A DNA stretch of 64,000 bases from Promethearchaeota archaeon. Its GTDB lineage: Archaea; Asgardarchaeota; Lokiarchaeia; Sigyniarchaeales; SOKP01. Location: assembly GCA_011364925.1 (NCBI GenBank), contig RDOA01000009.1, positions 47,291 to 111,290 on the forward strand, read 5' to 3'. Under the pieces are notes generated by a model that was not told where the DNA came from, did no database searches, and saw only the letters and a program-made list of their open reading frames with translations. Below, piece by piece: positions 18,631-37,478 of the stretch. The stretch's first letter is position 1. Each line of letters begins with the position of its first letter. Made by a program: the position numbers and the translations under genes.

Positions 18631-20847
18631 TTAATCTCCTCCCATCTGGAAATCCTCAGGGAATTTCCAAAATTCTTTAAATTCTTTGCTCCATGTTTTT
18701 GAAAGTTTAAGACTTTCAGAATACATTCTATTCACGTGTTCAGAAAGTTCTCCTTCAGTTATCTTTTTACGTTCATATTTCCAGAATTCTTCAAAATTCA
18801 TAGATTTTTCTTCTCTCTCCTTCTTGATCTCTTCTCTATGTTTTGTTGATTCTTCTACATCGATTTCCCACTCTTTTGTTGTCTTTTCATATTTAGCGAC
18901 AACACCAAATACGTTATTCACTGTTTCTGGAGTATATAAACCATCATCAAGATCTTGCTTAATGCTTTCTAATTTTCTCTCAAGAGGATCTCCATAACCA
19001 GGACCCCCACTTTCTGAAAAATGTATAATATCATAATTATGAAGAGAAATGGGATAAATTGTTCCATACGGTTTTCTTTCTATGTCACCTTCTAAAAACC
19101 TCTCAAATTCTCCATTACGCGTATCGTCATCACTTATAGGGTAATCTTGTTTATTTTGAAATATTTCTGCTAAATTTGTATTGGTAGCTTGTAATCTGTA
19201 ACTAGTAGAATTTGGATATCCACCATGCATACCTCCTGATCCATGAAAAACCAATCCTTCCCTTCCAGCAAAAAATTCAACCTTTTCTGAATTTGCAATG
19301 AAAGCTACTGATCCATAGTTCCCTCCTCCTCGATATTTTCCAAATCCTGCAACATTAGGTTTCACTTTTCTCGACAAGTAAGGAATACCTCCTTGGAAAA
19401 GCTCCCAGGTTTCTACATCTCCAAGATCAGACTCGGGATTCCACATAGCATAACCCCAATTTAAGCCATCTCTAACAGCACTAGCACCTAAACCTTGACC
19501 TGAAATTTCAAAGGTTGATAGCATCCATCTTTCACCCTTCAAAGGTCCCGCATTAAATATACCTCCACCTTGAATAGAATCACCCGTAAATCCATATCCA
19601 GGAACAACTTCTTCTCTAAATCCTCGTGCAAATAATCCATACGATAAGCATTTCATCATAGCTGTATAAGCAGGAATCAGATTTCCCCATGGAGCTTGAT
19701 AGGAAAGATAAGGATCTCCCGGATTAGCCCAAGAACCTAATGGATAATTTTTCTCAACAGCATAATATGCACCATCATTTACCTTATCCCCATAGATTAA
19801 AACCTGTGTTAATAGGACCCACTGACCTCCTTCCATAGCACCCTTATCACAATTAAAAGCGTTAGCGCCTCCTGCACTGGCACCGTCAAACGAAACGGAA
19901 AACTTTCCATCCTCCTTAACAATAATTTCAAGGGGATGATTAGAAATTCGATTTTCTTTTGCTAAGGGAACCCATGCTTGGTGTTTCATTGGAAGGTCCA
20001 TAAAGGAAGAAGCCCGATATCTTCCTGGAATCAGCCTTTCTTTGACTCTCTTCTGAAGTATTTGCCTCCCTTCTTCTATAGCTTCCCGTATAAATTTCTT
20101 ATAATATTCGATACCTTCTCTCTCGATGAACTCAAAAACCGCGTCTCTTATCATTAAGTTCCCAGCAAGACGGCATTTTTCATCAAGCTCCCAATACATA
20201 GGACTTCTCACAGCTTTTTTTGCGCTTATCATATGATCCCGCCAGATTTTATCATTCGATCCAATTTTTAGGCAAGTGTAATAAGCACCATCATCGAACC
20301 TCTGGATTGAAGATACTAAAGTATGACCTGGTGTTATTCCACCAATATCTATTTGATGAGTTACACCTCCAGCCCATCCGATGAGTTCTTCTTCCCAAAA
20401 GATTGGAATTAATGTCTGCACATCAGTTGTGTGAACATTTCCACACTGCGGATCATTATTTAAAAAGATATCTCCTTGATTAATTGTAGGATTCTCTTCA
20501 TACCCTTCCCGAATCATAAATTTGATGCCTTCGCTCATTGTATGGATGTGTACCAATATACCCGTAGAAACAGCAATTGAATCTCCCTCTGGGGTATATA
20601 ATCCAAAACATAATTCTCCAATCTCTGTTACAATAGGTGATGCTGCGACATGTAAAGCTGTTTCTCTAGCAGAAACTAAAGCTCCTCTTAAACTCGCATA
20701 TGCTCTCTCATATCTAAACGGATTTTCTTCCTTTAAGCTTAAATGTTCAATCCCATAATAAGATTTCTTGTCTTCAAGTAATTTTTCGCTCTCTTCAAGC
20801 ATGCTTTTAAGCGACTTTCCATTCCAACCGATATTTTTAGACTCCAT
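18631..20847 (-). CDS. acxB: Acetone carboxylase alpha subunit (hydantoinase B/oxoprolinase family)
   Basis: AASPIV..GELCFGLY, NNDPQCGNVHTTDV and GGVTHQID metal ligands, GGPGYGDPLER. Confidence 0.9.
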   Translation of the reverse strand: MESKNIGWNGKSLKSMLEESEKLLEDKKSYYGIEHLSLKEENPFRYERAYASLRGALVSARETALHVAASPIVTEIGELCFGLYTPEGDSIAVSTGILVHIHTMSEGIKFMIREGYEENPTINQGDIFLNNDPQCGNVHTTDVQTLIPIFWEEELIGWAGGVTHQIDIGGITPGHTLVSSIQRFDDGAYYTCLKIGSNDKIWRDHMISAKKAVRSPMYWELDEKCRLAGNLMIRDAVFEFIEREGIEYYKKFIREAIEEGRQILQKRVKERLIPGRYRASSFMDLPMKHQAWVPLAKENRISNHPLEIIVKEDGKFSVSFDGASAGGANAFNCDKGAMEGGQWVLLTQVLIYGDKVNDGAYYAVEKNYPLGSWANPGDPYLSYQAPWGNLIPAYTAMMKCLSYGLFARGFREEVVPGYGFTGDSIQGGGIFNAGPLKGERWMLSTFEISGQGLGASAVRDGLNWGYAMWNPESDLGDVETWELFQGGIPYLSRKVKPNVAGFGKYRGGGNYGSVAFIANSEKVEFFAGREGLVFHGSGGMHGGYPNSTSYRLQATNTNLAEIFQNKQDYPISDDDTRNGEFERFLEGDIERKPYGTIYPISLHNYDIIHFSESGGPGYGDPLERKLESIKQDLDDGLYTPETVNNVFGVVAKYEKTTKEWEIDVEESTKHREEIKKEREEKSMNFEEFWKYERKKITEGELSEHVNRMYSESLKLSKTWSKEFKEFWKFPEDFQMGGD

Positions 20848-20849
20848 TT

Positions 20850-23036
20850 TTATTTTCCCTCCATATGAAATATTCTGTGCTTATCAAGTTTAACTCGATA
20901 ATTTGGTGGAACCACTAAAGTAGTAGCTGGAGCCTCAATAACAGCCGGACCATTTACGATATTTCCACTATTTAATAGTCTCATTTCCCAGATAGAAGAC
21001 TCGTGCCATTTTCCGTCCCAATATGTTTCTCTTGTCCCTTTAGAGGATATGTCGTTAGGCCTTTCACTGCTTAACTCATACTCTGGTAATATAGGTTTAG
21101 GAACTGGTACTACTCCCGTACCGACAGCCTTAGTAACATGATAACCTAATTCAGGACTTTTGGTCCCTCGTCGAAAAATTTTTTCAAACAAATCGTCGTA
21201 TCGCTTAAGGATTATATCTACATCAGGCGAATCAAAACGATCTAGCTCTGCAGAATACTCTGCATTCAGTACATCGGTATGCGATTCAACTTCTAAATCT
21301 TTCAACATCCCAAAATATTGTAACTTAAGGGACGGTTTAAACTTCATTTCTTCAGGGTTCCTCCCTTCCTTTTCAAATTCTTCTTTAATTCTTGTTTTCA
21401 AGTCATTCCATGTTGAGCTTAGCATTGAGGCAACAAATCCACTCATAGTTCTGTCAGGATCGATAACTAAATCTACAGAGATCTCGTGTCTATAAGAGTG
21501 ATCGGCACATGCGCACCCATAAGCTGAAAACGCAGCAGCCCACTCCGGTATCATAATATTTTGAAAAGATAACCCTTTTGAATATCCTGCTACATGAAGA
21601 GGTCCACCACCTCCAAAGCTTAAAAGCGTATAATTTTCTGGTCTAAATCCAAGGCCCTGAATCATCCCGTTTAGGTGGTTTTTCATGTTAATCTCAATTA
21701 AATCCAAAGCTCCTCTTGCGGTTTCATATGGATCAGTTTTGAAAGGTGTAGCTAATTGATCTTCGATGTAACTAAGTGCTCTTTTTTTGTTTAAAGGAAC
21801 TTTCCCACCCAAAAAGTAGTCTGGATTAAGGTAGCCAAGAATCAAGCTGCAGTCAGTCATAGTCACTTGTTCTACTCCTGATTGTTCGTTACACACTCCT
21901 ATAAGATATCCTGCGCTCTCAGGACCGAATTCTAGTCTACCAGAAACATCATTGTATCTAACATACATCCCTGTACCTGCTCCAATTGAATCCAACGCTA
22001 TCATGGGAATATTTAGGATAAATCCACCAAGAGAGCTTTCCCATTTAGTCGGAACATAGTGTTCCATAGTTAGCCCAACATCAAAACTCGTACCTCCTAC
22101 ATCTGAAGATACCAGGTTTTTTATACCATATTTTTCAGCAATGAATTTACTACCAATCATACCCCCTATTGGTCCAGAGACCATGGTCGGAATAAGAGAT
22201 TTAGAATAGGGAGACATTGTTCCTCCATAAGAGGTCAAAATCCTAAGAGGTGCTGGCACACCCTTCTCTTTTAATTTCTCAGCTATAGCTTTTAATTGCT
22301 TCCTTGAGGGTTCTGCGGCATATTGTTCAATAAGAAGAGCGTTTAATCGTGGTGTTTCACCTCTTACCGGATTATGATCGGAAGACAGGATGACTGGTAT
22401 TTCTTTCCCTTTCTCTTTCATAATTTGCTTTGCTATTCTTTCTACCTCCATTTCATGCATTGAATTCATATATGAACAAAGTAGACATACACAGATACAA
22501 TCTACATTCATTTCAAGTAATTCGTCTACTGCTTTTTCTACATCTCTTTCATAAAGAGGAATCAGTTCGTCACCCCAAAAATTAATTCTTCCTCTCACTC
22601 CTTTAAAGTTATTTCTTGGAATAAGAGTCGGAGGATGTTCGTGTTCCCTAACATGAAGTCTTCCAGCATAATCAAGTCCTATCCAACATTGTAAAGCCCT
22701 TCCTAAACGGTGGAGATCCTCAAATCCTGCATTTACAATAACGCCAATGTTGTCGTTTCCTTCTCGTTCCAAAAGTCTATTAAGCATGGCTGTGCCTGAA
22801 TAGACTAAAGCCTCCACACCGACACCAGTATCTTCTAACAATTTACCCCATTGGTTTAATGAATCTTCGATGGAATTTAAAATTCCAATGGATTCTTCGT
22901 TTCCGGTGGTTAATGCTTTTCCTACAGAAAAACTACCATTCTCATCTATAATAAAGGAATCTGTCATTGTTCCACCAGTATCTAACGCAATGACCTTTAA
23001 TAAATGTGCTTTATCTTCATTTACTGATTCTGTCAA
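20850..23036 (-). CDS. acxA: Acetone carboxylase beta subunit (hydantoinase A family)
   Basis: DTGGTMTD, SGPIGG, DVGGTSFD, SIGAGTG, FGGGGPLH, GPAVIE; first gene of the acxABC operon. Confidence 0.9.
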   Translation of the reverse strand: MTESVNEDKAHLLKVIALDTGGTMTDSFIIDENGSFSVGKALTTGNEESIGILNSIEDSLNQWGKLLEDTGVGVEALVYSGTAMLNRLLEREGNDNIGVIVNAGFEDLHRLGRALQCWIGLDYAGRLHVREHEHPPTLIPRNNFKGVRGRINFWGDELIPLYERDVEKAVDELLEMNVDCICVCLLCSYMNSMHEMEVERIAKQIMKEKGKEIPVILSSDHNPVRGETPRLNALLIEQYAAEPSRKQLKAIAEKLKEKGVPAPLRILTSYGGTMSPYSKSLIPTMVSGPIGGMIGSKFIAEKYGIKNLVSSDVGGTSFDVGLTMEHYVPTKWESSLGGFILNIPMIALDSIGAGTGMYVRYNDVSGRLEFGPESAGYLIGVCNEQSGVEQVTMTDCSLILGYLNPDYFLGGKVPLNKKRALSYIEDQLATPFKTDPYETARGALDLIEINMKNHLNGMIQGLGFRPENYTLLSFGGGGPLHVAGYSKGLSFQNIMIPEWAAAFSAYGCACADHSYRHEISVDLVIDPDRTMSGFVASMLSSTWNDLKTRIKEEFEKEGRNPEEMKFKPSLKLQYFGMLKDLEVESHTDVLNAEYSAELDRFDSPDVDIILKRYDDLFEKIFRRGTKSPELGYHVTKAVGTGVVPVPKPILPEYELSSERPNDISSKGTRETYWDGKWHESSIWEMRLLNSGNIVNGPAVIEAPATTLVVPPNYRVKLDKHRIFHMEGK

Positions 23037-23165
23037 TTTCTTTCACTTAGAACTTTTTTAAAATTATATAACATAATTAGAGTTGATGCTATTTATAGCT
23101 AAGTGGTTATCAATATAATGTAAAATTGAAAAATAAGTATGATGATATTAACATCTAATAGAGAA

Positions 23166-24704
23166 TTAAATTCGTTCTATCATCATTCCACCAAGTATTA
23201 TAGGTCCACCTGTTGAATTGTAAATATTTTCTGCCCGTTTTATTTTACTTTGACTCTCAGAATATATTTTGAAAATTAAATCTCCTTCTTTAATTCTTGC
23301 GCCTTGTTTTTTGAAAATCTCGACACCTGACTGTTTTGAGTGTGGACATCCAGTAGCTTTGGCAATCTGATTAATAATGGCGTTATTTACTCCAGTTATA
23401 TGCCCTGGCTTTGTGGCAAAGAATTCTTTTTTGTAAGGCCCTAATTTAATTTCTTCTGGTTTAAGTTCAGGATTTCCACCTTGTGCTTTAATTATACTTC
23501 TCATTTTTTCATACGCCTTTCCAGATCGCAAAATTTCCTTTGCTAATTTTTGGCCCATTCCTTTTTGAGCTTTCCCTCCCATTTCAAGTAAAATGCCTGC
23601 TATATCTGTAGATTTTTCAATTAGAGAATTGGGACCAGCAGAATAGTCCATAAGTAGTGTTAACGCTTCTTTAGCTTCTAAACCAGGTCCAACCGCGTGA
23701 CCAATAGGTTGGTGTGCAAGAGTTAGTGCGCATTCTGCTTTAATTCCAACATTTCTTGCTATTTCTTTAAAAACATAAGCGAATTGTTTACCATCATGAG
23801 GGGTTGTAAATTTCGTACCTTCGCCTACCGGTATGTCTAATACGAGTTTTTTAACACCGAGAGATAATTTTTTAGTTATTATAGAGGGAATCATAAGGCC
23901 TATAGGGTCCATGTGCAATGGGCGTTCAATTTCGATTAATATGTTATCCGCGGGTGAAGTGTTTAAAGCTCCACCCCAAATAATGCAAGCGTTCTCTGTC
24001 GACACAATGGTTTTCAATGCATCTGCTTCAAAAGCGACTGGTGCTAAAACTTCCATAGAATCAGCAGTTCCAGAAGGAGAAGTTATTGCCCTTGTAGAAG
24101 ATTTCGGAATGGTTAATCCCGTAGCTGCAACAATAGGAACTATTATTAGGGAAACCTTATTTCCCGGTACCCCTCCCGTTGAATGTTTATCATATACATC
24201 GGGACCAAAATTGAAGATTTCCCCACTCCTAGATTCCGCATTTGCTAACGAAGTCATCTCTTCATGATCCATCCCATTTATGAATACTGCTGTGATAAAA
24301 GCTGCCAGATCTATTTTTGATAAGGAACCTGAGACAGTATCAGAAACAATGTTGTTAATTTCTTCAGTTGTCAATTTGCTTCCCCTTATTTTTTTCTGAA
24401 TAAATTTGAAAGAATCGGGAGGATCTGCTGATTTGACAGATAACACCATGTTATCTTTAAGAGAAGGCTTTTCTTTAATGATATCTAGAAAAACACCAAT
24501 TTCTCCCGGTTTCACGATAGAATTAGAATAATCAATTTGTAAAATGGCAATCCAATATTTTTCTTCAATGTTTTTAGATTCTAAATTTTTAATATTAATT
24601 CTATCGCCAGCTTTTTGTCCAAGTTTAAGTGCATCCTTGATATTTAAAACAACATCTTTGGTATTACCTGTCTCAAAGTTTATTGTTTTTACTTTTAGCT
24701 TCAT
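23166..24704 (-). CDS. deoA: AMP phosphorylase (archaeal thymidine phosphorylase family)
   Basis: DKHSTGGVPGNK, KSSTRAITSPSGTADSMEVL, DIPVGEGTK, QPIGHAVGPGLEA. Confidence 0.92.
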   Translation of the reverse strand: MKLKVKTINFETGNTKDVVLNIKDALKLGQKAGDRINIKNLESKNIEEKYWIAILQIDYSNSIVKPGEIGVFLDIIKEKPSLKDNMVLSVKSADPPDSFKFIQKKIRGSKLTTEEINNIVSDTVSGSLSKIDLAAFITAVFINGMDHEEMTSLANAESRSGEIFNFGPDVYDKHSTGGVPGNKVSLIIVPIVAATGLTIPKSSTRAITSPSGTADSMEVLAPVAFEADALKTIVSTENACIIWGGALNTSPADNILIEIERPLHMDPIGLMIPSIITKKLSLGVKKLVLDIPVGEGTKFTTPHDGKQFAYVFKEIARNVGIKAECALTLAHQPIGHAVGPGLEAKEALTLLMDYSAGPNSLIEKSTDIAGILLEMGGKAQKGMGQKLAKEILRSGKAYEKMRSIIKAQGGNPELKPEEIKLGPYKKEFFATKPGHITGVNNAIINQIAKATGCPHSKQSGVEIFKKQGARIKEGDLIFKIYSESQSKIKRAENIYNSTGGPIILGGMMIERI

Positions 24705-24866
24705 AATTTCAAAATAGCGTTTAATTCATTATAAATTAGATCATTCGGTTAAATAAAGGTACTTGAATAGTCTTCGTATTCCCCTCTGAATAATTTCTCG
24801 CGTGAGTTTCTCATTTTCCGAATATTTTATTTAAACTTTTTAATAAAATTAATTAAAAATCAATAA

Positions 24867-26018
24867 ATGATAAGAAGTATGAACAAGTTCGAAAAAGCTC
24901 AAACTGTACTCAACGAAATTGACGCGGAAGGCTGGTTAATAGTATGCGTTGAAGATAGTGATATTAATTCTAGATTTATGATAGGTGTTACTTCTCACGC
25001 CCGGCACTACATTTATATTGGTGCTGATGGAAAACATAAAGTTATCGCTGTTGAGATGGAAGCTCCCATGATTGCTCGTTCTTTAAAGGACAAAGGAGTA
25101 AATGCTGATGTGGTATCCTATAACTCAATGCTTGAATTAACAACATTGTTAATTCCTCTTGTTAATAAACCGCGTATAGCTTTAAACTTCGGAAATGAAA
25201 TACTATCTCCAGAAGGAACCGCCTTTGCTGATCAGATTCGCGTAGGAGATTTCTTCTCGATGAAAACATTGGCTCCACAAACAGAATTTATATCAGCAGC
25301 ACCTATAATAGAGAGGTTAAGAAGCGTAAAATCCTCTGAAGAGTTAAAAGATTTGCGAAACGTATGCAAAGCCACTTTAGAGTTATTGGAGAAATTTCCC
25401 GATTGGGTTAAGGTTGGGATGACGGAAAAGGAAGTAAAAGCAAAATTAGAATACGAATATATGAAAGTGGGGAGACCTTCGTTTCCAGCAATAGTTGCCA
25501 CTGGAGCTCATTCAGCAGATCCGCATCATAACACTTCTTCGAAGAAAATTGAACCGGGTGTGTTATTAGTGGATACAGGGTTGCAAATCGACGAAATGTG
25601 CTCTGACATAACTTGGACATTTTGGGTTCGAGATAAACCTGTTCAAGAATTTATCACCGCTTACGACGCTCTTTTTGAATCTAAAGAAATTGCTCACAAT
25701 TTCTTTACTGATGGAACCCCAAATAACTTACCTGCTAAGAAATGTCGAAAATATCTAGCTGATAAGGGATACGACCACGAGAAGTTATTTTTCCATGGAT
25801 ACGGCCACTCATTAGGATTCGAAGCGCACGACATCGGCGGTAGAATTAACTGGAATATGCCTGACAATATTAAACTTAAAGAGAATATGGTATATACGAG
25901 CGAGCCAGGGCTATATTGGACTGATAAATGGGGAATAAGGTTAGAAGACGATGTTATTATAGGTAAAGATAAATGCGAGAAAGTTACTTATAACTCTAAA
26001 GATCCTATGATAATTTAA
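24867..26018 (+). CDS. Xaa-Pro peptidase family (M24B)
   Basis: PHH, DTG...SDITWT, HGYGHSLGFEAHD, EPGLY, GIRLEDD. Confidence 0.9.
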   Translation: MIRSMNKFEKAQTVLNEIDAEGWLIVCVEDSDINSRFMIGVTSHARHYIYIGADGKHKVIAVEMEAPMIARSLKDKGVNADVVSYNSMLELTTLLIPLVNKPRIALNFGNEILSPEGTAFADQIRVGDFFSMKTLAPQTEFISAAPIIERLRSVKSSEELKDLRNVCKATLELLEKFPDWVKVGMTEKEVKAKLEYEYMKVGRPSFPAIVATGAHSADPHHNTSSKKIEPGVLLVDTGLQIDEMCSDITWTFWVRDKPVQEFITAYDALFESKEIAHNFFTDGTPNNLPAKKCRKYLADKGYDHEKLFFHGYGHSLGFEAHDIGGRINWNMPDNIKLKENMVYTSEPGLYWTDKWGIRLEDDVIIGKDKCEKVTYNSKDPMII

Positions 26019-26031
26019 ACTTGATTTTTGC

Positions 26032-27339
26032 TTAAAGTTTGATGGAGAATGGGAATTCTTTAGCTTCTTCTATTTTGTTTTGGTCAGGATCGACAAATTT
26101 TATGTATACTTTAATTATGTAATCTCCTGCTTCTAATGGTTTAAGGTTTATTTCCCATTTCAAATCTTCATTAGTTCTTAATGAATATATCTGTTTTTTA
26201 GTGGTACCTCTCATAACTTTTAAATTCTCGGGGAATTCGACATCAATATCTACATCTAACGCTTCCCCTTCGCTTTGGTTTTCAATTAGAATCTCCAAAG
26301 GAAATGTTTGATCAATAAGAGGAGGTCTTAAATTTTTAATAGAAGCTAATAGTGTAGCAGGAGGGGAAACTAACTGAGGTACTACTGATTGAGTTTCATA
26401 TGTAAAGATGAGGTTTTTGTCTAAATCGCAAGTAAACAAAATAGGTCCAATGAACGGATTTTCAATTTGGAAATGAGGTTTAATTATAAATTCTAAACTG
26501 GAAACATTTCCCACATCAAGAGTTAAAGGAACTTGTGGTTTTTTACTCGTAGTCAAGTTATCTGAAAGGTTAACTGTTATTTTATTTATATTAAACTCGC
26601 TATATTCAAACTGATAATAAGGATCATTTAGGATCGTTGATAAGCCTGTGATATCAAAATTGAGAGTAAGGTTTATTAGTTCATTAGTGTTATATTGGTC
26701 TTTATCTAGTTTAAATGTTGAGTTAGTTAACAGTTGAACATTTATTAGGAGTAGCACATATTTTAATAGTTTTACTTCAGCGTCCCTAAATTTGTAATGG
26801 GTCATATTCTCTTTAATTTTATCAATGTATTTGATTTGTTTATCCCGAAGAGAAAGGGTAATTTCAGAAACTAGCTGTATTAATGAGCTTTCCTTGAAAA
26901 AATCTTTATCGACCTTTCTTTGAATCTTCTTTATATTCTCTAAACCTTCCTCAGGATTACCCTTAAGAAATGAACATAAATAGGATAATACTGAAAAGAG
27001 AATGCTATTATAACTTCGTTCTCCTTCATTTTTTAGCTTCGGAACATACTCTAACACTTCTTTATAAACTTCGTTAGCTGCTAAAAATTCATCTGCATAA
27101 ATACAAGCTTCCCCAGATTGCCTAAATAGCTCAATAGTAGTATCATATCTCTCCAATTCCATAAACATTTTAGCAGCATTGATAAAACTGTTCCTAGCCT
27201 CTTCAAATTCCTCTAATTTCAGCAGAATATTTCCAGCTAAGTGATAATTTTTACCAGCTTTTTTAAATTGTCTTGCTTTGAACAGTTGGTCAGCTTTTAG
27301 TATTTGCTTTTCAGCTTGTTCTCTTTGGTCTTTTCCCAT
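26032..27339 (-). CDS. Hypothetical protein: TPR/SNAP-like helical N-terminus plus C-terminal Ig-like domains
   Basis: Ala-rich TPR-like helices (AGKNYHLAGNILLKLEEFEEARNSFINAA). C-terminal LEILIENQSEGEALDVDI...L.PLEAGDY beta-sandwich. Confidence 0.65.
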   Translation of the reverse strand: MGKDQREQAEKQILKADQLFKARQFKKAGKNYHLAGNILLKLEEFEEARNSFINAAKMFMELERYDTTIELFRQSGEACIYADEFLAANEVYKEVLEYVPKLKNEGERSYNSILFSVLSYLCSFLKGNPEEGLENIKKIQRKVDKDFFKESSLIQLVSEITLSLRDKQIKYIDKIKENMTHYKFRDAEVKLLKYVLLLINVQLLTNSTFKLDKDQYNTNELINLTLNFDITGLSTILNDPYYQFEYSEFNINKITVNLSDNLTTSKKPQVPLTLDVGNVSSLEFIIKPHFQIENPFIGPILFTCDLDKNLIFTYETQSVVPQLVSPPATLLASIKNLRPPLIDQTFPLEILIENQSEGEALDVDIDVEFPENLKVMRGTTKKQIYSLRTNEDLKWEINLKPLEAGDYIIKVYIKFVDPDQNKIEEAKEFPFSIKL

Positions 27340-27448
27340 TTAAAATCCCAATAATTTTAATTTAAATTTATGAATTAAATTACACATTAAAAATTACGCC
27401 TAATTAATGAGAAAAAAGAAAAAAAAAGACAAATTTAATTTATTTTGT

Positions 27449-28105
27449 TTATAAAGCTAAAACCATTAGTACAAATGCTATTAAAATGAGTATTCCTCCA
27501 AATCCAGCTAATCCAATAAAACCTACCGCAAATGGCGATATCCAAGTAAAGATAACAAAACCTATTAATAGGACTACCCACCATGAGTAATTAATTACCT
27601 TCAAATCTACGAAATCAAATAAAACGATAATCAAAAGTATTAAAAGAATTAATCCAATAACGCCATTAACGATAAGAAGAGCATTTCCAGAGAGGAAAAG
27701 TAAAAAGCACTCATAAACCGAAAAGCCAATACCGATTAGTAGTACTATTTTTGAAGCTTTATATGGTTTCTTTTGCATAAATAATTCAACAAATGCCGCT
27801 ATTAACAACAATATTCCAGCAAAATAACCACCACCAAAGAAGTAGGCAAATATAATCAATATAGCTCCAAAGATAAGGATTAGCCACCATTGATATGGAA
27901 TTTTTAAAGGCCCAAAACTAATCAATTCTAATGTAAGAAAGATTAAGAACGCAATGACTAAGCAAAGTATCCCCCAGAGTATATTAAGACCGAAACCACC
28001 TAGTGGCGCATAGAAATATGTTATAGCCATAAAAATTGTATAAAGCATCCCTATAAACACAAGCAATTTTGGAGCTGAAATTTTTTCTGTTGACAATTCA
28101 TTCAT
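27449..28105 (-). CDS. Integral membrane protein with internal two-fold duplication
   Basis: About 8 hydrophobic segments; halves repeat (APKLLVFIG/ASKIVLLIG; IPYQWWLILIFG/INYSWWVVLLIG). Confidence 0.8.
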   Translation of the reverse strand: MNELSTEKISAPKLLVFIGMLYTIFMAITYFYAPLGGFGLNILWGILCLVIAFLIFLTLELISFGPLKIPYQWWLILIFGAILIIFAYFFGGGYFAGILLLIAAFVELFMQKKPYKASKIVLLIGIGFSVYECFLLFLSGNALLIVNGVIGLILLILLIIVLFDFVDLKVINYSWWVVLLIGFVIFTWISPFAVGFIGLAGFGGILILIAFVLMVLAL

Positions 28106-28270
28106 TTTTTTTCACTTTTTTTAAATTCTTCTAAATTTTAATTTAGAATTAGAAATTAAATAGGATCGTGAATTTAAAAAGATTTACAGATTACTTAAGA
28201 TATTATTAATAGGAGTTCAAAACTCTTATTAAAAAATAAAATTTTAAAAATTAGAGATTAAAATTTTTTT

Positions 28271-28337
28271 CCGAAACCATCACATAATGGGTTGTCTTCT
28301 CGCGACTATTATTTCTTCGCGAAAATCATTCTTTCGG
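28271..28337 (-). promoter_or_regulatory. SECIS element (eukaryote-like AUGA...GA type)
   Basis: mRNA reads CCGAAA-GA-AUGA-UUUUCGCGA-AGAAAUAAUAG-UCGCGAGAA-GA-CAAC-[CCAUUA-UG-UGAUGG]-UUUCGG. This gives an AUGA/GA core, a 9-bp upper stem, an AAA-containing loop and a CCGAAA/UUUCGG lower stem, directly 3' of two UGA-containing genes. Confidence 0.88.
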
Positions 28338-28814
28338 TTTAATTTTTTTTGCTTTTTCATCAGAATCTTTTTTCTCATTTATTAAGGATTCTTTAATGGG
28401 ATTGGTGCCTAGATTTTCTATTAATTCAGTAACCCTGGTAACTTCTTCTTGAAATCTCTGGCCCTCAGCAGCACTACAGTTAAACATTTGGATTCTTTCA
28501 GGAGCTACTCCGGCAGTTTTTAAAATTTCTCGAGTGTATTCAACATTTTTTGCTGCTACTAAATTACCAGTTTCATAATCGCATTCTCCTTCGTATCATC
28601 CTGCAACGACTACTCCATCTGCGCCCTTTCCAATCGCCCTCATCATTAAACTGGGGGTAACCCTCCCAGTACAGTTAATTCGCACAGGTCTAATAGACGC
28701 AGGATATTGAGCGCGTATTGTTCCAGCCATATCCCCAGCACCATAACCTCATTTCCAACACATAAAAGCTATTATCTTTACCTGGTCTTTTGTTTTTGCT
28801 ACTATAATTTTCAC
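28326..28814 (-). CDS. mvhD: Selenoprotein VhuD/MvhD (methyl-viologen-reducing hydrogenase delta subunit, 2Fe-2S), 2 Sec; not in ORF track
   Basis: Translates KIIAFMCWK-U-GYGAGDMAG...RINCTGRV...GADGVVVAG-U-YEGECDYETGN...PERIQMFNCSAAEG. TGA at 28749-28751 and 28596-28598 occupy conserved MvhD Cys positions. Start is GTG 28814 or a nearby ATA; stop is TGA 28326-28328. Confidence 0.93.
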
Positions 28815-28818
28815 CTCT

Positions 28819-30795
28819 CTATATCTCTTCCAATATCGCGTCTATCTGTTTTTCGTATTGAGGTTCACGATAATATCTTAAAGTAATTGCTTCTGAGGGG
28901 CAATTAGCCAAACAAGCACCACAACCTCTACAAAGGATATCGTTAACTTCTGCGCCATCCGATTCGACAGTAATCGCACCATATGGGCAGTTGAGCTGAC
29001 ACAATCCACACTTTGCGCATCTTTCGTTATCAACAGTTGCACGAATTAGGAGAATCCTATATTTATCCTTTGTCATTAACCTTGCCAAAGACGACGCAGC
29101 GGCTCTTCCTTGCGCTATTGACTCTGAAATTGATTTTGGTCCTTGAGATACACCAGCTAGCACAATTCCAGGGATTTTTGTATCGATTGGATTCAATCGC
29201 GAATGATATTCCTTGAAAAATCCATCATGACTTTTCTCTAGTTTCAGAATATTGGACAAACCCTCAATCCCTTTAGCGGGTACCATAGCGCTAGATAAAA
29301 CTACCAAATCAAATTCAAATTCTTTTAATCCCGTAGTACCTACGGTGTTTTGTAATCTTACTTTAAGGTTATGGGTTTCGGGGTCTTCATAAATTCTGGA
29401 TACATTAGTTCGTATGTATTTTATTCCCTCTTTTCTAGATGCTGTAAAATATTCCTCGTAATCTTTCCCCGCAGCTCTTATATCCATGTAGGCTACGGAA
29501 ACATCAATATCGGGAGAGTGTTGTTTAATGAGCTTTGTATTCTTTACTGAGATCATACAACACACTCCAGCACTACAGTAAGTTTGCCTGGTTAAATCTC
29601 TTGATCCTACACATTGAATAAATAGAACGCTTTTAGGCTCTTTTCCATCAGAAGGTCGCTTTAGGTGTCCTATTGTAGGTCCATTAGGTGCTAATATTCT
29701 CTCCAGTTTTAACTGTGTTATAACATTAGGGTAAACATTGTAACCTAAATAACCTGTCTCTGGTTCGTATTCATCCCATCCTGTTGCAACTACTATAGAA
29801 CCAACCTCAATTTCTAAGATTTCATCTTTTTGGTCAAAATCTATCGCGTCTACTTCGCAAGCTTTTTCACATAATCCACATTTGATACACTTGGTCATGT
29901 CGATTTGAGCTATCATTGGAACTGCTTGTGCAAATGAAGCATATATAGCTTTTCTGGGATTCAAACCTTCGTTAAATTCATTGTATCCATAAGCTGGGCA
30001 GACTTCCCAACACGCTCCACAGCCATTGCAGTCATTGTTAACATATCTTGCTTTTTTTCTGATTTTAACCTTAAAATTCCCAACAAATCCAGTTACTTCT
30101 TCAACTTCACTATAGGTATGCAGATTCAATCCAGGAGTTCTAGCAGTTTGGAGCATAACCGGACCGAGAATTCATATACTGCAATCGTCTGTTGGGAATG
30201 TACGATCTAACATAGCCATCTTTCCGCCAATCGTGGGTTTTTTCTCTACTAAATGTACCTCAAAACCTTCTTCTGCTAAATCTATTCCTGCAGATAATCC
30301 TGCGACTCCCCCACCAATAATTAGAGCCTTTTTTGTTATATCTACTTCTTTGATTAAGATTTTCTCTAAAGTAGCAGCTCGAGCTACTCCGGCACGGATA
30401 GCGTCTTCTGCCGTTTTTTGTGCTCCAGGTTTATCATTTCTGTGGACAAAACTCGAATGCTCGCGGATATTCACGAATTCTAAGTATGACGGATCTAAAT
30501 TCATCGACTCTAGCACGCTTTTAAATACTGGTTCGTGAGTTTTTGGAGTGCATGATGCCATTAGTAATCGATTTGCATTAAATTCGATCATCTTTTCTTT
30601 TATAAACTCAGCACCAGACTGTGTTCATAGAGAAATATAATCTATCGCTTCTACAACATTAGGCAGTTTTTTGGCATATTCTGATAATACTTTTGTATCT
30701 ATGATTTCAGCGATGTTAAGTCCTCACTGGCAAATAGTAACTAAGATTCTGATGTCATCACTTTCAGTCATAACTTCCTCTTTAGTTTCTACCAT
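28819..30795 (-). CDS. hdrA: Selenoprotein heterodisulfide reductase subunit A-like (HdrA), 3 Sec; ORF track splits it into fragments
   Basis: One reading frame from ATG 30795 (alternative 30771) to TAG 28819. In-frame TGA at 30724-30726 (CQ-U-GLNI), 30625-30627 (ISL-U-TQSG) and 30172-30174 (TDDCSI-U-ILGP), all aligning with conserved HdrA cysteines. Also GGGVAG FAD motif, QCVGSRD and ferredoxin motifs. Confidence 0.95.
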
Positions 30796-31001
30796 TGCAT
30801 GTCCTTCCTTTCTAATTTTTTAAGTTCCTCCTAAATATTCAAATCTAATTATTACAGTTCTAAATGATTATTTCTAATTTAAAATAACTGATTAAAAAAA
30901 TAACTTTAAAACAATCTTTTTTTATATAAGTTTTATAATTAATTGAATTAAAAATATTCGTTAATCGTTTATAATCGAATTATCACGGTTATTGATATAA
31001 A

Positions 31002-31427
31002 ATGATATTAACTTTTTTCCAGATGGGAAATTTTAAAATAGACGAATATCTCCCTATCATAATGATTGCTGCATTTGCTGTAGGAGATATATTATTGCTT
31101 AAGCTTGGGTTAGTAATAACTAAAGCGCAGAAAAGAAAACGCATGAAATGGGTTGCGGGAAGTTTTGCAATTCAATTTGGAGTAGTTTTTGCTATAAGTT
31201 CTCCTTTGTTTTTACTTGGCATTATAGGTGCTTTCAAAGGGGGGCCTCCTCCTGTAGGGTTAGCTTCTATCGTTTTCATTTCAGCTTTTATTGATCTTAA
31301 CATAATTAACATTTTACATCAGATTGGATTAAAACGCTCACTAGTAGTGGTGATATTTACATTTGCTCCAATATTTCTGATGATGGTAGTTTTTGGGATG
31401 TATGTATCAAGCTTTTTTCATTATTAA
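31002..31427 (+). CDS. Small integral membrane protein
   Basis: Four hydrophobic segments; no recognised motif. Confidence 0.7.
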   Translation: MILTFFQMGNFKIDEYLPIIMIAAFAVGDILLLKLGLVITKAQKRKRMKWVAGSFAIQFGVVFAISSPLFLLGIIGAFKGGPPPVGLASIVFISAFIDLNIINILHQIGLKRSLVVVIFTFAPIFLMMVVFGMYVSSFFHY

Positions 31428-32353
31428 GTATTGTCTAAGTTAATCACTTTATTTATTTCCTTATTCATTTCAGAGATTTTGTCTCTAGCAGCTTCACCGA
31501 ATTTGTTCGCAGAGTATTTGCCGTTTTTAGAATAAGCATACATTATTCCTCTAGAGGAATTAACAATTGCTCCCAAGCCATCCTCATAAAATCCATTTTT
31601 TGTCTCTTTTGCCGTAGCACCCTGAGCTCCAAAACCAGGTATTAGAATATAAGAATTCTTGACTATGTTTCTTATAGACTTTAGTTCATCTGGGAAAGTG
31701 GCGCCTACAACGACACCTAAATTGTGAAAATTTGATACTTGCGTTAACTCTTCCCCCCATTTAGATACAAGTCTTGCCATTTTTATGTAATTTCTTTCTA
31801 AAGTAGCATTTTCCACGCTAACTTCGATCTTAGAATCTGGTATTCCTAATATTTCAGTACTAAAAAGGTTTTGAAAGTCATTACTGCTAGGATTTGATGT
31901 TTTAACTAAAACGAATAAACCTTTTTCTTTAAATTCTAAAAATGGTTTTACTCCATCAATTCCAAGATATGCGTTTATAGTACACGCATCAGCGTTTAAA
32001 ACTTTAAAAATAGAATAAGCATATGCCTCTGAAGTCGTCCCGATATCGTTTCTTTTGCAGTCTAAAATAACTAATAAATCCTTTTTGTGAGCATATTTTA
32101 TAGTTTCTTTTAAAGCGTCGAAAGCTTCATATTTCTCGTAAAATGCTATTTGAGGTTTTATAACAGAGATTATATCATATGTATTATCAATAAGAGTTTT
32201 ATTAAATTCAAGAATAATTTCATTGGGGTCATCATATTCGTCGATTAAAAATTGTGGAATTTCCCCTTCTTTATCTAATCTGGGATCCAATCCCATGGAT
32301 ACAACGCTATGTTTATCCTTAATTGATTGAATTAAATCTCTAATAAAATTCAT
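31424..32353 (-). CDS. pyrF: Orotidine-5'-phosphate decarboxylase
   Basis: GLDP, KPQIAFYE, DCKRNDIGTT, KTSNP, VVGAT, LIPGFGAQG, NSSR. Confidence 0.96.
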   Translation of the reverse strand: MNFIRDLIQSIKDKHSVVSMGLDPRLDKEGEIPQFLIDEYDDPNEIILEFNKTLIDNTYDIISVIKPQIAFYEKYEAFDALKETIKYAHKKDLLVILDCKRNDIGTTSEAYAYSIFKVLNADACTINAYLGIDGVKPFLEFKEKGLFVLVKTSNPSSNDFQNLFSTEILGIPDSKIEVSVENATLERNYIKMARLVSKWGEELTQVSNFHNLGVVVGATFPDELKSIRNIVKNSYILIPGFGAQGATAKETKNGFYEDGLGAIVNSSRGIMYAYSKNGKYSANKFGEAARDKISEMNKEINKVINLDNT

Positions 32354-32515
32354 GATTTAATATTAAGATTAGTTCTTGTTTTCTAATATTTTAAAGGACT
32401 CTTTATGTATATATCTTTTTCTTAGAAACTCTTATTGTGAAGCTTTCTTTAACTGTGGATTTCGCACTTTTATTTGAATAATTTACTAAACCATACAATA
32501 TAGAAAATTAATTAC

Positions 32516-33946
32516 CTATTTTTCCCGATAAAAAGTTTCTTTCCCTCGAACCATTGAGATTAAGGCTCCAAATATACAAATTATTGCGGATACTATAAAA
32601 GCAGTATGCATTCCCATTTCAAAACTAGCTTTTATTGAGGAGGTGATTACAATGGTCTGATGAGATAATACGGGATTCAACACATAAGGGGGAATAAATA
32701 TTGCTAAGATAGCACTAAGCAAAGCTATGCTAATTGATTGCCCTATCACCCGCATTGTAGACAGTGTCCCAGAAGCAATTCCTAAATCTCTTTTTTCGAC
32801 AGATTTCATAATAGCAGACTGATTAGGTGAAGAAAATAGTCCAATCCCAAAACCAATAACGGATTGGCTTATAATAATATAAATTATGTTAAGATAAGTA
32901 ATTATAAACACGAGACTGAAAAGCCCTACTGCCATAATACTCAAACCTACAGTACATGGAATTCTTGTTCCTATTTTATCAGACAATCTCCCACTAAATA
33001 AGGTAGAAACTGCCATTGTTAATGTGGTTGGAACTAAGAAAAATGCTGTTATTGCTGGAAATATTCCTAATATAGATTGCAGATAAATTGATAACAAAAA
33101 ACTTACCCCCATTGTAGCAATATAATTTATTAAAGCAGCAACATTTGCAGCAGCAAAGATCCTGTTTTTTTTAAATAGATTTAAGTTTAGCATAGGATAT
33201 TTTACCTTTGTCTCTATAATAATGTAAGAAATAAAACTTATTATTGAAATTATTATAAAACTCAGAATAATCGGAGACATCCACCCAAAAGTATTTGCCA
33301 GACTCAAACTTAAGAGAAATAAAGCTAAAGCAATACCGAAAGCTATGGTTCCTAAAATATCAAATGATTCGTCTTTTAATTTTAATTCTGATTGTTTTAA
33401 TTTTAAAAATCCGATGATAATTAAAATTACACCAATGGGAAGATTGATTGTAAATATGGTTCTCCATGTACCAGTAACTTGTATTAAAAGACCTCCTAAT
33501 ACCGGTCCTAATACCAATCCAAGATAAATAGATGCAACATATATTCCTAATGCTTTGCCCGTTTCTTGATGGGGAAACACTTCAGTTATCATTGAAGCGG
33601 AAATCGCAGCTATAAATGCACTGCCCGTTCCTTGAATCGCACGAAATATGATAACCATCTCTCCAGATGTAGATAACATACATAAGAAACTTGAAAATGT
33701 AAATAGGATAATACCTAATAAAAAAAAGTTTTTTCTTCCACGAATATCTGATAATCTCCCAAATGCTATTAAAGTAACAGCCATAACCAAAAGATAAACA
33801 ATCGGTATCCATTGAACAATTTCAAAAGAAGTTTTTAAATCTTTAGAAAGCGCGGGAATTGCAATATTTAAAATACTCCCGTCTAAAGAAGTCATAAAAG
33901 AACCTACTGTAGTGACTCCTAATACGGTCCATTTGTATTTTACCAT
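32516..33946 (-). CDS. MFS transporter, DHA2/EmrB-like (14 TM)
   Basis: LDGSILNIAIP, GRLSDIRGRK, RAIQGTG, LGPVLGG, WRTIFTINLPIG. Confidence 0.92.
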   Translation of the reverse strand: MVKYKWTVLGVTTVGSFMTSLDGSILNIAIPALSKDLKTSFEIVQWIPIVYLLVMAVTLIAFGRLSDIRGRKNFFLLGIILFTFSSFLCMLSTSGEMVIIFRAIQGTGSAFIAAISASMITEVFPHQETGKALGIYVASIYLGLVLGPVLGGLLIQVTGTWRTIFTINLPIGVILIIIGFLKLKQSELKLKDESFDILGTIAFGIALALFLLSLSLANTFGWMSPIILSFIIISIISFISYIIIETKVKYPMLNLNLFKKNRIFAAANVAALINYIATMGVSFLLSIYLQSILGIFPAITAFFLVPTTLTMAVSTLFSGRLSDKIGTRIPCTVGLSIMAVGLFSLVFIITYLNIIYIIISQSVIGFGIGLFSSPNQSAIMKSVEKRDLGIASGTLSTMRVIGQSISIALLSAILAIFIPPYVLNPVLSHQTIVITSSIKASFEMGMHTAFIVSAIICIFGALISMVRGKETFYREK

Positions 33947-34089
33947 AGTAAATACTCCAATTTCATTTTTTTATATCATTTTGATCCTATAATTATATCT
34001 AAAAGTAAAATTTGGAGTTATTAAAAAATTAAGATTTAAAAATAAAAGCAAAAATCAAAGAAATACTAAAAAAATATCAAAGTTTAAAT

Positions 34090-34692
34090 TTAGACTCTTA
34101 ACGAGCCACGGAATCCCCTAGCGCTATAGAAAGAGGGTGCGCTGTTATGATATATGAATACATGATCGTAGCGGCGATCAGCAAAGATGGCGCCACCAAG
34201 TTTTCTAATATCAGAAGGTGTTTTCACCCAGCTCGATGTCTTCATATCAAAATTCCCAAGTTTCTGCAACTCTCGATATTGTTCTTCTGTTAAAAGCTCA
34301 ATGCCCATTGCAGCTGCCATATCAATAGCATTACCTGCTGGATGAATCCCTTTCTTTTCCCTCGCCTCCTGTCCTTCACGGTCGTAACAAACATTTCTAC
34401 GGTCTTTAGGACTTTCCGCTGAGCAATCATAAAAAATGTATTCACTCGTCTTTTTATCATGGCCAACAACATCCGGTTCACCACCAGTTCTTTCCATTTC
34501 ATTGAGTGACCACAGTTTATCTGTATTGGCTTCCAGCTTTGTTTGTATTTCAGCCCATTTAAGACTTTTATGGCGGTCCATGTTTTTCTCAAAACGAGCT
34601 TTCAATGCTCTGAGTAGTTTTTCATGTTGTTCTGTTGACAACTCTTTTTTGAATGCAGTAATTGACGATTTAGGCATAATCATCGTATTCAT
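34090..34692 (-). CDS. DUF4256 family protein (bacterial-type)
   Basis: LKARFEKNM.RH, WSLNEMERTGGEPDVV, DCSAESPK.RR, KTSSWVKTP..IRKLGGAIF, ARGFRGSLRV. Confidence 0.85.
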   Translation of the reverse strand: MNTMIMPKSSITAFKKELSTEQHEKLLRALKARFEKNMDRHKSLKWAEIQTKLEANTDKLWSLNEMERTGGEPDVVGHDKKTSEYIFYDCSAESPKDRRNVCYDREGQEAREKKGIHPAGNAIDMAAAMGIELLTEEQYRELQKLGNFDMKTSSWVKTPSDIRKLGGAIFADRRYDHVFIYHNSAPSFYSARGFRGSLRV

Positions 34693-34828
34693 CTTGAATA
34701 TATAAAATTATCTAGGCATGGAAGGACATTTTTAGTCCTAATTGCTGTGAAAAATTAGAGAACATCGGACTTTATTTCCACTAAATTAAAAAAAAAATAG
34801 AATATTTTTGATACAATAAATGTTCTAA

Positions 34829-35797
34829 CTAATCATTATTTTTGTTACCTTTTCCGGATCTTATTTCGCGGATTCCTTCCTTAACTTTTTTTATCGTAAT
34901 TCCTTTAAGTTTAATGAATCGAAGGATATATATGACAGTAGAGATTATAATGCCCACAAGGTAAAAGATTTGAATAGTCCAAAAGAGAGGTTCTATAGAT
35001 AAAAAGAATACTAGTTTAAATATGTATGATAAGCACGAGATCGTAGCGATCCAAATCATCGAAATAAGTAATGCGATTCTTTCGTAGAACTTTGGTTCTC
35101 CTTTATCAAAAACAAATATTTTAAGCCAAAAAACAATACAAACAAAAGCCACAGGCGTAAAAATAAGAGATCCTATAGCAATCGGTATAAGCATATATAC
35201 TGCAAATCTGTTTCTCCAAATATCAAGAACATCTCTTAATGACATTTGATCTTGAATTTGAACCTTCGCGTACTTTTTTCTCATGCTGAAGTACCCTTTC
35301 TTAATTTTTCTTCCTATTTCTTTTGCTCCTCTTTTTGCACGATTAAATATTCCTGCATCTGTGGCCTCCTGAAATTCTTCTTTAATTAAAGGAATAATGT
35401 ATAATGTTAGTGCAAATGAAATAATACCATAAAGAAATACAATAAGATCGATCCAATATTGTATACCCGTGGGAGACGTAGAAGGTGGTAAGTTTGAAAT
35501 TATACTATAAATTGCGTATCCTATGAAAATTACCGGAATAATCAATTGTATTACTATAAGAACCTGAATATCTTTTTTATTGAATTTTTCTGTAAAACGA
35601 TTAAGAATCCATAAAATAGCATTTGAAACTGTTAATATCAAACCAAATCCGGAAATGAGCTTCATTGCCCAAAAGAAAATCAAGTAACTAAGATTCAATG
35701 CGACAAATCCAAAAATGAACTCAAGAGCCATGAAAATAGCAGTTCCGACTAAACCAATTATATAGAAAATATCAAATTGTTTGAGATTTAGATTCAT
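34829..35797 (-). CDS. Integral membrane protein, unknown function
   Basis: About 7 TM segments with a basic cytoplasmic loop. Confidence 0.75.
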   Translation of the reverse strand: MNLNLKQFDIFYIIGLVGTAIFMALEFIFGFVALNLSYLIFFWAMKLISGFGLILTVSNAILWILNRFTEKFNKKDIQVLIVIQLIIPVIFIGYAIYSIISNLPPSTSPTGIQYWIDLIVFLYGIISFALTLYIIPLIKEEFQEATDAGIFNRAKRGAKEIGRKIKKGYFSMRKKYAKVQIQDQMSLRDVLDIWRNRFAVYMLIPIAIGSLIFTPVAFVCIVFWLKIFVFDKGEPKFYERIALLISMIWIATISCLSYIFKLVFFLSIEPLFWTIQIFYLVGIIISTVIYILRFIKLKGITIKKVKEGIREIRSGKGNKNND

Positions 35798-35910
35798 AAA
35801 TAAAATGAATTATTCTAAATCTTAATAATGTTCGTGAAGTTACATTTCAGTTTTTTCAAAAAAATAATAGTTTAGCACCTTTTCTTTCATAGATATCAAG
35901 ATCTTATTAA

Positions 35911-37422
35911 CTAATTAAGAGTTTTACCTATTTTCTTATTCTTTTTCAAAGATTTTCTAGACTGCCATGGATATATTGATATTGCTGTTACAAATGGTAC
36001 CTTAGATCTTCCTATACGGAACAAGCTTCTCAATGATTTTCTGATTTCTGACATAAATTCATTTCTAATAATTTGATTTTTTACCTCTCCTTCTTCCTTG
36101 ACTAATTTCAATCGAAATAGTGCGAAAAGACCGATAAAAATAGCAATTATAAAGAAAAAATCTATTCCTTGTAATGATAGTATTTGAATGGTAGTACCTT
36201 CATTTGGAAAGTTCCAAGTTAAAGTCCAAGAAAAATTAGAAAATTCAAAAATATTTACTAAAAGTCCGCCAATAATAGGAGCAACTCCCAAGGAAATAGA
36301 TGTGAATAACGAAGCTATCGCTAGAAACCAATTAGCTTTTCCTCTTGGAGCTAATTTCAAACCAATATTGCTTAAGGAAAGAGAAGTTCCTGCTAGTGAA
36401 ATTCCCATAAGAATATGTATTACAACTAATAATGGAATTGTTAATAAATATAATGCAGAAACTGATGTGAAAATCCAAGCTAAAATGCACAAAAGAAACA
36501 TAGGACATGATATACTCAATACAGATTTATTACTGAACTTATCAGAAAGAGAACCCCACAACTTTAAAAACATCAGATTTACAAGTTGGCTTATTACAGT
36601 GAAAACTACAACTATAGTCAGACTTAAATGTAATTTTTCTAGCATATAAACTGTAAAAAAAGGTACTGTTAATCCAATTGTAAAATACCAAAAAAATAAA
36701 AAGATTAGAAGCTTTTTGAAATTCTTATCTTTATAAGGTTCAGAAATTGTTTGGAAGAATTTTGGTTTTCCATCTAATTTTATCATCATTGGTTCTGAAA
36801 TTTTTGAAATATAATAGACGCTAATCAACCCAAATATAAATCCTAAAAAATACAAAATAGAATAACCAAAATCTTCTGCATTCACGAAATTAGTTTTCCA
36901 AAAATCGATAAAAATTCCAGCTAATAAATTTGTGATTAGTCCCATGAATGTTGATATTAGCAATCTTCTAGAAAAAAATTTGCCAAGTATTTTTTGAGGA
37001 ATTAAATCATGCATCCAAAAATTCCAAGCAGTATGTCCAATTGAAGCGAAGATAGATTGTAATGATAAAAAAATAATTAAAAAAATTAAACCTGATTCAG
37101 ACTTGAAAAAAAATGGAACTAAACCTATTGTTAGGAGGCAAATTCTATATAAAGTTAGTGAAAAAACACTAATTGCCCGACGATTACGTAATTTTTCAAT
37201 TAAAAAAATTGTGGGAATTTGAAAGAAATTGCATATTGTTGGAATCGCGCTCATTAGACCAATAATAAAAAAATTTGCTCCAAATCTCAGAGCAAAAGAA
37301 ACTAATATTGGCCCTGTCGTTAAATTCACCATAATTTGGGAGATGTAACCATCTTTCGTAACGTTTTTCAACGAAAGTTCTATGTCATTTTCACTTAATG
37401 TCTCTTGAGTTGGAAGGAACAT
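35911..37422 (-). CDS. MFS transporter
   Basis: About 12 TM; WMHDLIP...GKFFSRR, WGSLSDKFSNK. Confidence 0.88.
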   Translation of the reverse strand: MFLPTQETLSENDIELSLKNVTKDGYISQIMVNLTTGPILVSFALRFGANFFIIGLMSAIPTICNFFQIPTIFLIEKLRNRRAISVFSLTLYRICLLTIGLVPFFFKSESGLIFLIIFLSLQSIFASIGHTAWNFWMHDLIPQKILGKFFSRRLLISTFMGLITNLLAGIFIDFWKTNFVNAEDFGYSILYFLGFIFGLISVYYISKISEPMMIKLDGKPKFFQTISEPYKDKNFKKLLIFLFFWYFTIGLTVPFFTVYMLEKLHLSLTIVVVFTVISQLVNLMFLKLWGSLSDKFSNKSVLSISCPMFLLCILAWIFTSVSALYLLTIPLLVVIHILMGISLAGTSLSLSNIGLKLAPRGKANWFLAIASLFTSISLGVAPIIGGLLVNIFEFSNFSWTLTWNFPNEGTTIQILSLQGIDFFFIIAIFIGLFALFRLKLVKEEGEVKNQIIRNEFMSEIRKSLRSLFRIGRSKVPFVTAISIYPWQSRKSLKKNKKIGKTLN

Positions 37423-37478
37423 AATAAACTTTATAGTTGAGCCTTTTTAGGAATTAGATTTATTATGAAGAAAATTGG

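Follow-up and report, generated by a model that had tools for sequence, protein, structure and literature searches.

The vhuD stop codon lies within the core of a lokiSECIS probably shared by hdrA and vhuD in a Promethearchaeota archaeon

The element at the 3′ end of vhuD in a Promethearchaeota archaeon (28271..28337, minus strand) is a genuine SECIS of the eukaryote-like lokiSECIS type already published for Lokiarchaeota. Positions refer to the window, that is, the whole 64,000-nucleotide stretch of contig RDOA01000009.1 that was analysed, and lie on the minus strand unless a plus strand is given. We consider it very probable that this is the single SECIS shared by both cistrons of the hdrA-vhuD selenoprotein mRNA, a lokiSECIS (Asgard eSECIS-like type I) in which the coincidence between the vhuD stop codon and the conserved core is a by-product. 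Comparison across relatives adds one modest point, suggesting that these signals regularly contain the two helices framing the main stem, H1 and H3, and would thus be three-way junctions.

The two genes are tightly arranged. When TGA is read as selenocysteine (Sec), hdrA (28819..30795) has 658 codons and ends at a UAG stop (28819-28821); its three Sec UGAs fall at 30726-30724, 30627-30625 and 30174-30172, and its product matches the HdrA structure 5ODC (6.7e-199) with Cys opposite all three. The hdrA UAG is separated by 4 nt from the start of vhuD/mvhD (FlpD family; 28326..28814; 162 codons; Pfam PF02662, E = 1.7e-42), whose two Sec UGAs lie at 28751-28749 and 28598-28596; two TGA codons are present in every one of its close orthologues. 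All five UGAs of hdrA and vhuD occupy Cys/Sec positions, and they lie from 267 to ~2400 nt upstream of the SECIS, the farthest being ~2.4 kb away. The 3′ end of vhuD reads AAA CCG AAA GAA UGA, with the terminal UGA at 28328-28326. The next gene downstream (27449-28105) encodes a very hydrophobic product of 218 residues with no Pfam match, and several T-runs between it and the SECIS could be an archaeal terminator of the hdrA-vhuD transcript.

Folding the element with RNAfold returned exactly a three-helix structure, with a minimum free energy (MFE) of −18.2 kcal/mol and z = −3.09 relative to shuffles, and the core and full covariance models place the element at the same site. In the lower helix, H1, the 5′ strand CCGAAA (28332..28337) pairs with UUUCGG (28271..28276), which adjoins H3 directly; as the earlier note had stated, the 5′ strand is coding sequence, the Pro-Lys codons near the end of vhuD. 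The AUGA core follows at 28329-28326, and its UGA is the vhuD stop codon. H2, the main stem (28297..28325), pairs 28325-28317 with 28305-28297 through nine standard pairs out of nine, one of them G-U, and is capped by an 11-nt apical loop (28316-28306, AGAAAUAAUAG) that starts with AGAAA and ends with AG. The 3′ GA of the AUGA/GA core occupies 28296-28295 and is followed by a conserved C at 28294, which with G 28331 forms the first pair below the kink. H3 is a side hairpin on the 3′, non-bulged strand (28290-28277; CCAUU-AUGU-GAUGG). The earlier note had described this hairpin with 6 bp; it does exist at this position, but it comprises 5 bp and a 4-nt loop, since a sixth pair would shrink the loop to an impossible 2 nt. 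Thus the A-UGA at the end of vhuD is indeed the 5′ half of the AUGA/GA core, and a single UGA would act both as terminator and as structural element on an mRNA with five other in-frame UGAs, three in hdrA and two in vhuD.

Several searches identify the element as a SECIS. The full three-helix model (R1) scored 92 bits at the vhuD site, but its pre-filter missed several known elements when it was run on the archaeon's own genome, and we therefore relied on a covariance model of the core only (R2), derived from 27 diverse elements, all of which carry the AUGA, with sampling unbiased as to H1 and H3. This core model scored 47 bits at the vhuD site (E = 3.9e-8 for the genome) and found no second match in the hdrA-vhuD operon. 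In all it returned ~776 matches; each genome of the family (101/101) had 4-13 of them, and 114/121 genomes of the order had at least some. A whole-genome pattern scan for the core alone recovered ten convincing elements, and the SECIS-like elements that we examined stand just 3′ of long open frames, several of which contain in-frame UGAs. The main stem also varies in a compensatory manner: an orthologue alignment made from sequence only has compensatory changes at five H2 pairs, and a wider structure-fitted set has them at all nine.

A scan of positions 20000-40000 against Rfam, with E values up to 10, found no SECIS family and only two chance matches, so the link to eukaryotic SECIS is made by motif rather than by model. 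One sub-threshold match in this region, to a plant C/D-box snoRNA (25.9 bits, E = 0.2), falls inside an OMP-decarboxylase-like gene at 32077-32171 on the plus strand and is probably due to chance. The missing Rfam match and the T-runs after the element are what one would cite for regarding the hairpins as chance folds of AT-rich intergenic DNA, or as an archaeal transcription terminator rather than a SECIS. However, the exact lokiSECIS pattern directly 3′ of a gene with two Sec codons, and the presence of only ~10 such elements per genome, are at odds with that reading, and the core-model score together with covariation and the compensatory changes among orthologues effectively refutes it; we regard it as exceedingly improbable. 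From the position of the SECIS, its conservation and the analogy with known systems, we infer that it directs Sec insertion at the upstream UGAs.

In the text of Mariotti et al. (2016, PMC4989117), a lokiSECIS consists of an AUGA, then a 9-bp stem whose 11-nt loop is A-rich at its start and closes with (A)G, and finally GA(C). The vhuD element follows this description throughout, with AUGA directly 5′ of a 9-bp main stem, an 11-nt loop whose first five nucleotides are A-rich (AGAAA) and whose end is AG, and, where GA or AA is expected directly 3′ of the stem, a GA at 28296-28295 and then a C. Its location agrees as well, at the 3′ end of a selenoprotein gene and, within the tandem, only after vhuD: the same text reports that hdrA-vhuD tandems share one element after vhuD, that the stop of hdrA in these tandems is always UAA or UAG, and that the element serves up to six UGAs over ~2 kb. 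It mentions neither a lower helix nor a 3′ side hairpin, whereas the vhuD element has both. The element also fits the pattern given for Asgard eSECIS-like type I in the text of PMC11227280 (NNGAN, stem of 7-15, loop of 8-20, NGANN), which further considers an internal loop and a lower stem but, in that text, not a conserved hairpin inside the 3′ side of the internal loop.

With the eukaryotic SECIS (RF00031, whose kink-turn core is bound by SBP2) the vhuD element shares the AUGA/GA core, the A-rich apical motif, a helix I below the internal loop, long-range action from the 3′ end and a minimal spacing between UGA and SECIS. It differs in its shorter upper stem, the absence of an Rfam match, its overlap with coding sequence and its third helix; SBP2, according to the text of PMC4989117, is not known in Lokiarchaeota. 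The euryarchaeal SECIS (eaSECIS) is defined by a GAA_A bulge between two stems, the upper of which has three consecutive G/C pairs, and on inspection the vhuD element lacks this combination: the nucleotide before the 3′ strand of H1 is G rather than A, and GAA is not followed by an upper stem in the required register. Elsewhere in the genome, SepSecS is present (contig C64:6905-8062). tRNA-Sec was not detected with RF01852, with ARAGORN over the whole genome or with both tools around SepSecS on C64, in an assembly that yields only 23 tRNAs, so that this negative carries little weight; that so few appear in a MAG rated 100% complete points to tRNA genes that are either poorly assembled or atypical.

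How the stop codon relates to the core is best seen among the 20 vhuD orthologues of the same genus (74-91% protein identity). The stop is the UGA of AUGA in 10/20, and in the other 10/20 it lies 6-19 nt upstream: eight of these ten end at a UAA immediately 5′ of H1, one at a UAA a few codons 5′ of that main site, and the last at a UAA that lies in frame, two codons ahead of AUGA. The nucleotide sequence from the UAA through CCGA to AUGA is conserved in both groups of orthologues, and CCGA/UCGG of H1 is kept in 19/19, whether or not it lies in the coding frame. What distinguishes the groups is the frame in which a Lys-rich tail encoded by poly-A arrives. With the H1 region constant while the frame varies, the constraint is on the RNA, which thereby sets the last few residues of VhuD. 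The comparison of vhuD 3′ ends that the earlier note had proposed thus came out divided, in that the compensatory changes at five pairs of H2 bear out the main stem, whereas the coincidence of stop and AUGA is not conserved.

The wider sample is similar. Among 67 distinct vhuD-linked elements across the order, the stop falls at AUGA in 21 (31%), 1-7 nt upstream in 20 (13 of these being UAG at −5), 8-20 nt upstream in 19 and farther off in six, and 31% is close to the one third expected from a random reading frame. In many other genera (for example L066, L077, L089 and L104) vhuD ends with a UAG located at −5 relative to the U of AUGA (UAGAAUGA); the A and G of this UAG can pair with the C-U after GA, so that the stop would form a short helix below the kink. 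In the archaeon's own genome, elements on contigs C5, C67 and C112 have a stop at AUGA. The one at ~20460 of C67 (plus strand; L045) follows a short VhuU-like gene (FDC-UGA-LSCAAH) that stops at the UGA of its AUGA, in agreement with the published VhuU.1. At ~33569 of C32 (plus strand; L041/L053), a selenoprotein gene ends AAG UGA GAA UGA, where another UGA stands in frame two codons ahead of the one in AUGA and either may be the terminator.

A stop inside the core is not new, being already published, and it is evolutionarily labile. The text of Mariotti et al. (2016, PMC4989117) reports that AUGA doubles as the stop codon of VhuU.1, the difference being that the gene concerned is vhuU there and vhuD here, and that of Huang, Xiao and Zhang (2024, PMC11227280) reports that UGA stops often overlap AUGA in Asgard elements. 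Given these reports, with 10/20 orthologues and 21/67 vhuD-linked elements sharing the arrangement, it does not count as special or selected. Judged from sequence comparison, the coincidence is a by-product of the overlap between gene and element, not a conserved device.

The contrary proposal is that the coincidence was selected as a device: ribosomes terminating there would melt the SECIS and thereby limit Sec insertion at the five UGAs, and the overlap would ensure that the last UGA is never recoded. The overlap is real, a ribosome at the stop must unfold the element, and the arrangement recurs across lineages and gene families, as on C5, C67 and C112 and in the 21 of 67 vhuD-type elements. 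Yet only half of the orthologues keep it, stops 6-19 nt upstream would melt the SECIS equally well, a frequency of about one third is that of a random frame, changes of frame in the Lys-rich poly-A tail account for the flips, and proximity alone protects nearby UGAs (PMC4989117). Because the stop lies within or just before the element in nearly all cases, a terminating ribosome unfolds the SECIS even where the stop is not the AUGA, and since any nearby stop brings about this unfolding, a special device is neither needed nor evidenced. We therefore consider a selected device highly unlikely. Any feedback of termination on upstream Sec insertion, if real, is a matter of speculation and should hold just as much for the ~90% of elements with a stop no more than 20 nt upstream of AUGA.

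For the shared SECIS with its incidental stop, the structure and the published model together suggest the following course of events. A kink-turn-type AUGA/GA core would form at the base of the 9-bp stem with its A-rich 11-nt loop, framed by H1 and H3, and the folded element would let a Sec-specific elongation factor carrying Sec-tRNA decode the five distant UGAs. As the element adjoins the point where the coding sequence ends, its 5′ part would be translated, and the vhuD frame would simply happen to enter the UGA of AUGA. With the terminal UGA in the A site, H1 would be unwound and the 5′ strand of H2 would lie in the mRNA channel; the SECIS would be unfolded at that moment, and a release factor would terminate translation, in line with the minimal-distance argument of Mariotti et al. 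(2016). In the Discussion of PMC4989117, UGAs close to the SECIS are held not to be recoded on account of a minimal-distance requirement, and the statement of the earlier note that a ribosome at the terminal UGA must have melted the SECIS amounts to the same account. Over evolution, the RNA sequence would have been held constant, with relatives stopping as often at a UAA just 5′ of H1 or at a UAG at −5.

The frame beyond the terminal UGA is open, as the earlier note had pointed out: read-through would add 24 codons before the UAA at 28253-28251 (putative extension, 28251..28325). Given that UGA is decoded as Sec elsewhere on the same mRNA, the terminal UGA might sometimes be read as Sec as well, producing a VhuD isoform with a 24-residue C-terminal extension. 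However, the extension runs through the SECIS, which cannot be folded while it is being decoded, its sequence is low-complexity and AT-rich, and half of the orthologues end at an upstream UAA, so that no conserved extension exists. We rejected Sec at the terminal UGA on the grounds that half of the orthologues stop earlier; such an isoform is very improbable, and the 24-codon extension is probably never translated.

The side hairpin had been presented in the earlier note as an insertion in the vhuD element. To judge H1 and H3 more generally, we used a set sampled by the core and not selected for its flanks; its 98 distinct elements fall into 44 flank-sequence clusters and come from ~70 genomes of at least 17 genera. 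H3 stands 1-6 nt after the GA in 43/44 clusters; it has at least 4 bp in 43/44 (compared with 54% of shuffled flanks) and at least 5 bp in 35/44 (26% of shuffled flanks). Scoring the three-helix layout by MFE worked well for only 16/24 clusters on account of competing pairings, and helices were therefore enumerated explicitly, upon which H1 and H3 occurred together in 21/24 clusters as against 37% of shuffles, or in 19/24 as against 18% under a stricter score. When the ten elements of the archaeon's own genome were folded one by one, most had the same layout in entirely different sequences, with H1 around the core, an H3 of 4-7 bp a few nucleotides after the GA and then, almost at once, the 3′ strand of H1. 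H3 is thus a regular helix and not a peculiarity of the vhuD element. Helices similar to H1 and H3 also occur downstream of vhuD in other families of the order.

Alignments agree with this layout to differing degrees. In a model-fitted alignment of 62 distinct elements, pairing was preserved in 92% and 75% of cases for the two segments of H1, 93% for H2 and 96% for H3; double changes occurred at every pair, and 90% of cells were paired. The covariation score in this alignment, which is fitted to the structure and made of related sequences, was 0.562, whereas shuffles gave 0.199 and slid partners no more than 0.146. When the orthologues are aligned from sequence alone, H1 and H3 show conservation without covariation, and RNAalifold run on the orthologue alignment found H2 and H3 unaided. 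The nucleotide two before AUGA and the one after GA, the (−2,+1) pair, form G-C in 42/44 clusters, the two exceptions having U-A or A-U, as would suit a kink turn whose bulge is three nucleotides long (R, A, U). The tip of H3 is GCAA or GCGA, of GNRA type (GC[AG]A), in 24/44 clusters (for example L040, L044, L046, L058, L065, L070 and L081), and in the vhuD group of the archaeon's own genus the H3 loops are others; we found no literature on tetraloops in Asgard SECIS. Since the pairing of H1 and H3 is kept while their sequences change, SECIS of this type would be three-way junctions. The side hairpin does not appear in the texts of PMC4989117, PMC11227280 and the 2026 review PMC13188914, figures and supplements aside.

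A known structure offers a parallel at the level of secondary structure. The k-junction (Wang et al. 2014, PMC4005666; Li et al. 2023, PMC10573300) is a kink turn whose non-bulged strand carries a third helix. In secondary structure only, H2 would correspond to the NC helix, following the GA/GA with its capacity for tandem G·A pairs, and the bulged strand reads R-A-U; likewise, H3 would be the third helix on the non-bulged strand, 0-1 nt from H1, such that coaxial stacking is possible. In contrast to canonical k-junctions, however, the elements have 1-3 Watson-Crick pairs and 2-4 linker nucleotides between GA and H3, and the known k-junctions belong to riboswitches and DUF-3268 rather than to recoding signals. 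L7Ae did not fold the two k-junctions tested by Lilley and colleagues (PMC10573300). Tentatively, and as a structural model that we hold to be plausible but somewhat short of probable, Lokiarchaeial SECIS could be k-junction-like, kink-turn three-way junctions rather than two-helix hairpins, with H1 and H3 functional, for example by being read by an archaeal SECIS-binding factor.

The locus illustrates well how one distal SECIS can serve five UGAs spread over two cistrons and provide a stop codon besides. It is of practical use for annotation, as gene callers break both hdrA and vhuD at their UGAs. Being published and labile, the overlap of stop and core answers no open question. More is to be gained from the architecture, in which a third helix on the 3′ strand and a closing helix persist in at least 17 genera of one family. 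This may provide a sharper structural model for finding the Asgard SECIS binder or for tracing the origin of the eukaryotic SECIS, and, if the k-junction-like reading is true, the internal loop of the eukaryotic SECIS would be the remnant of a lost helix.
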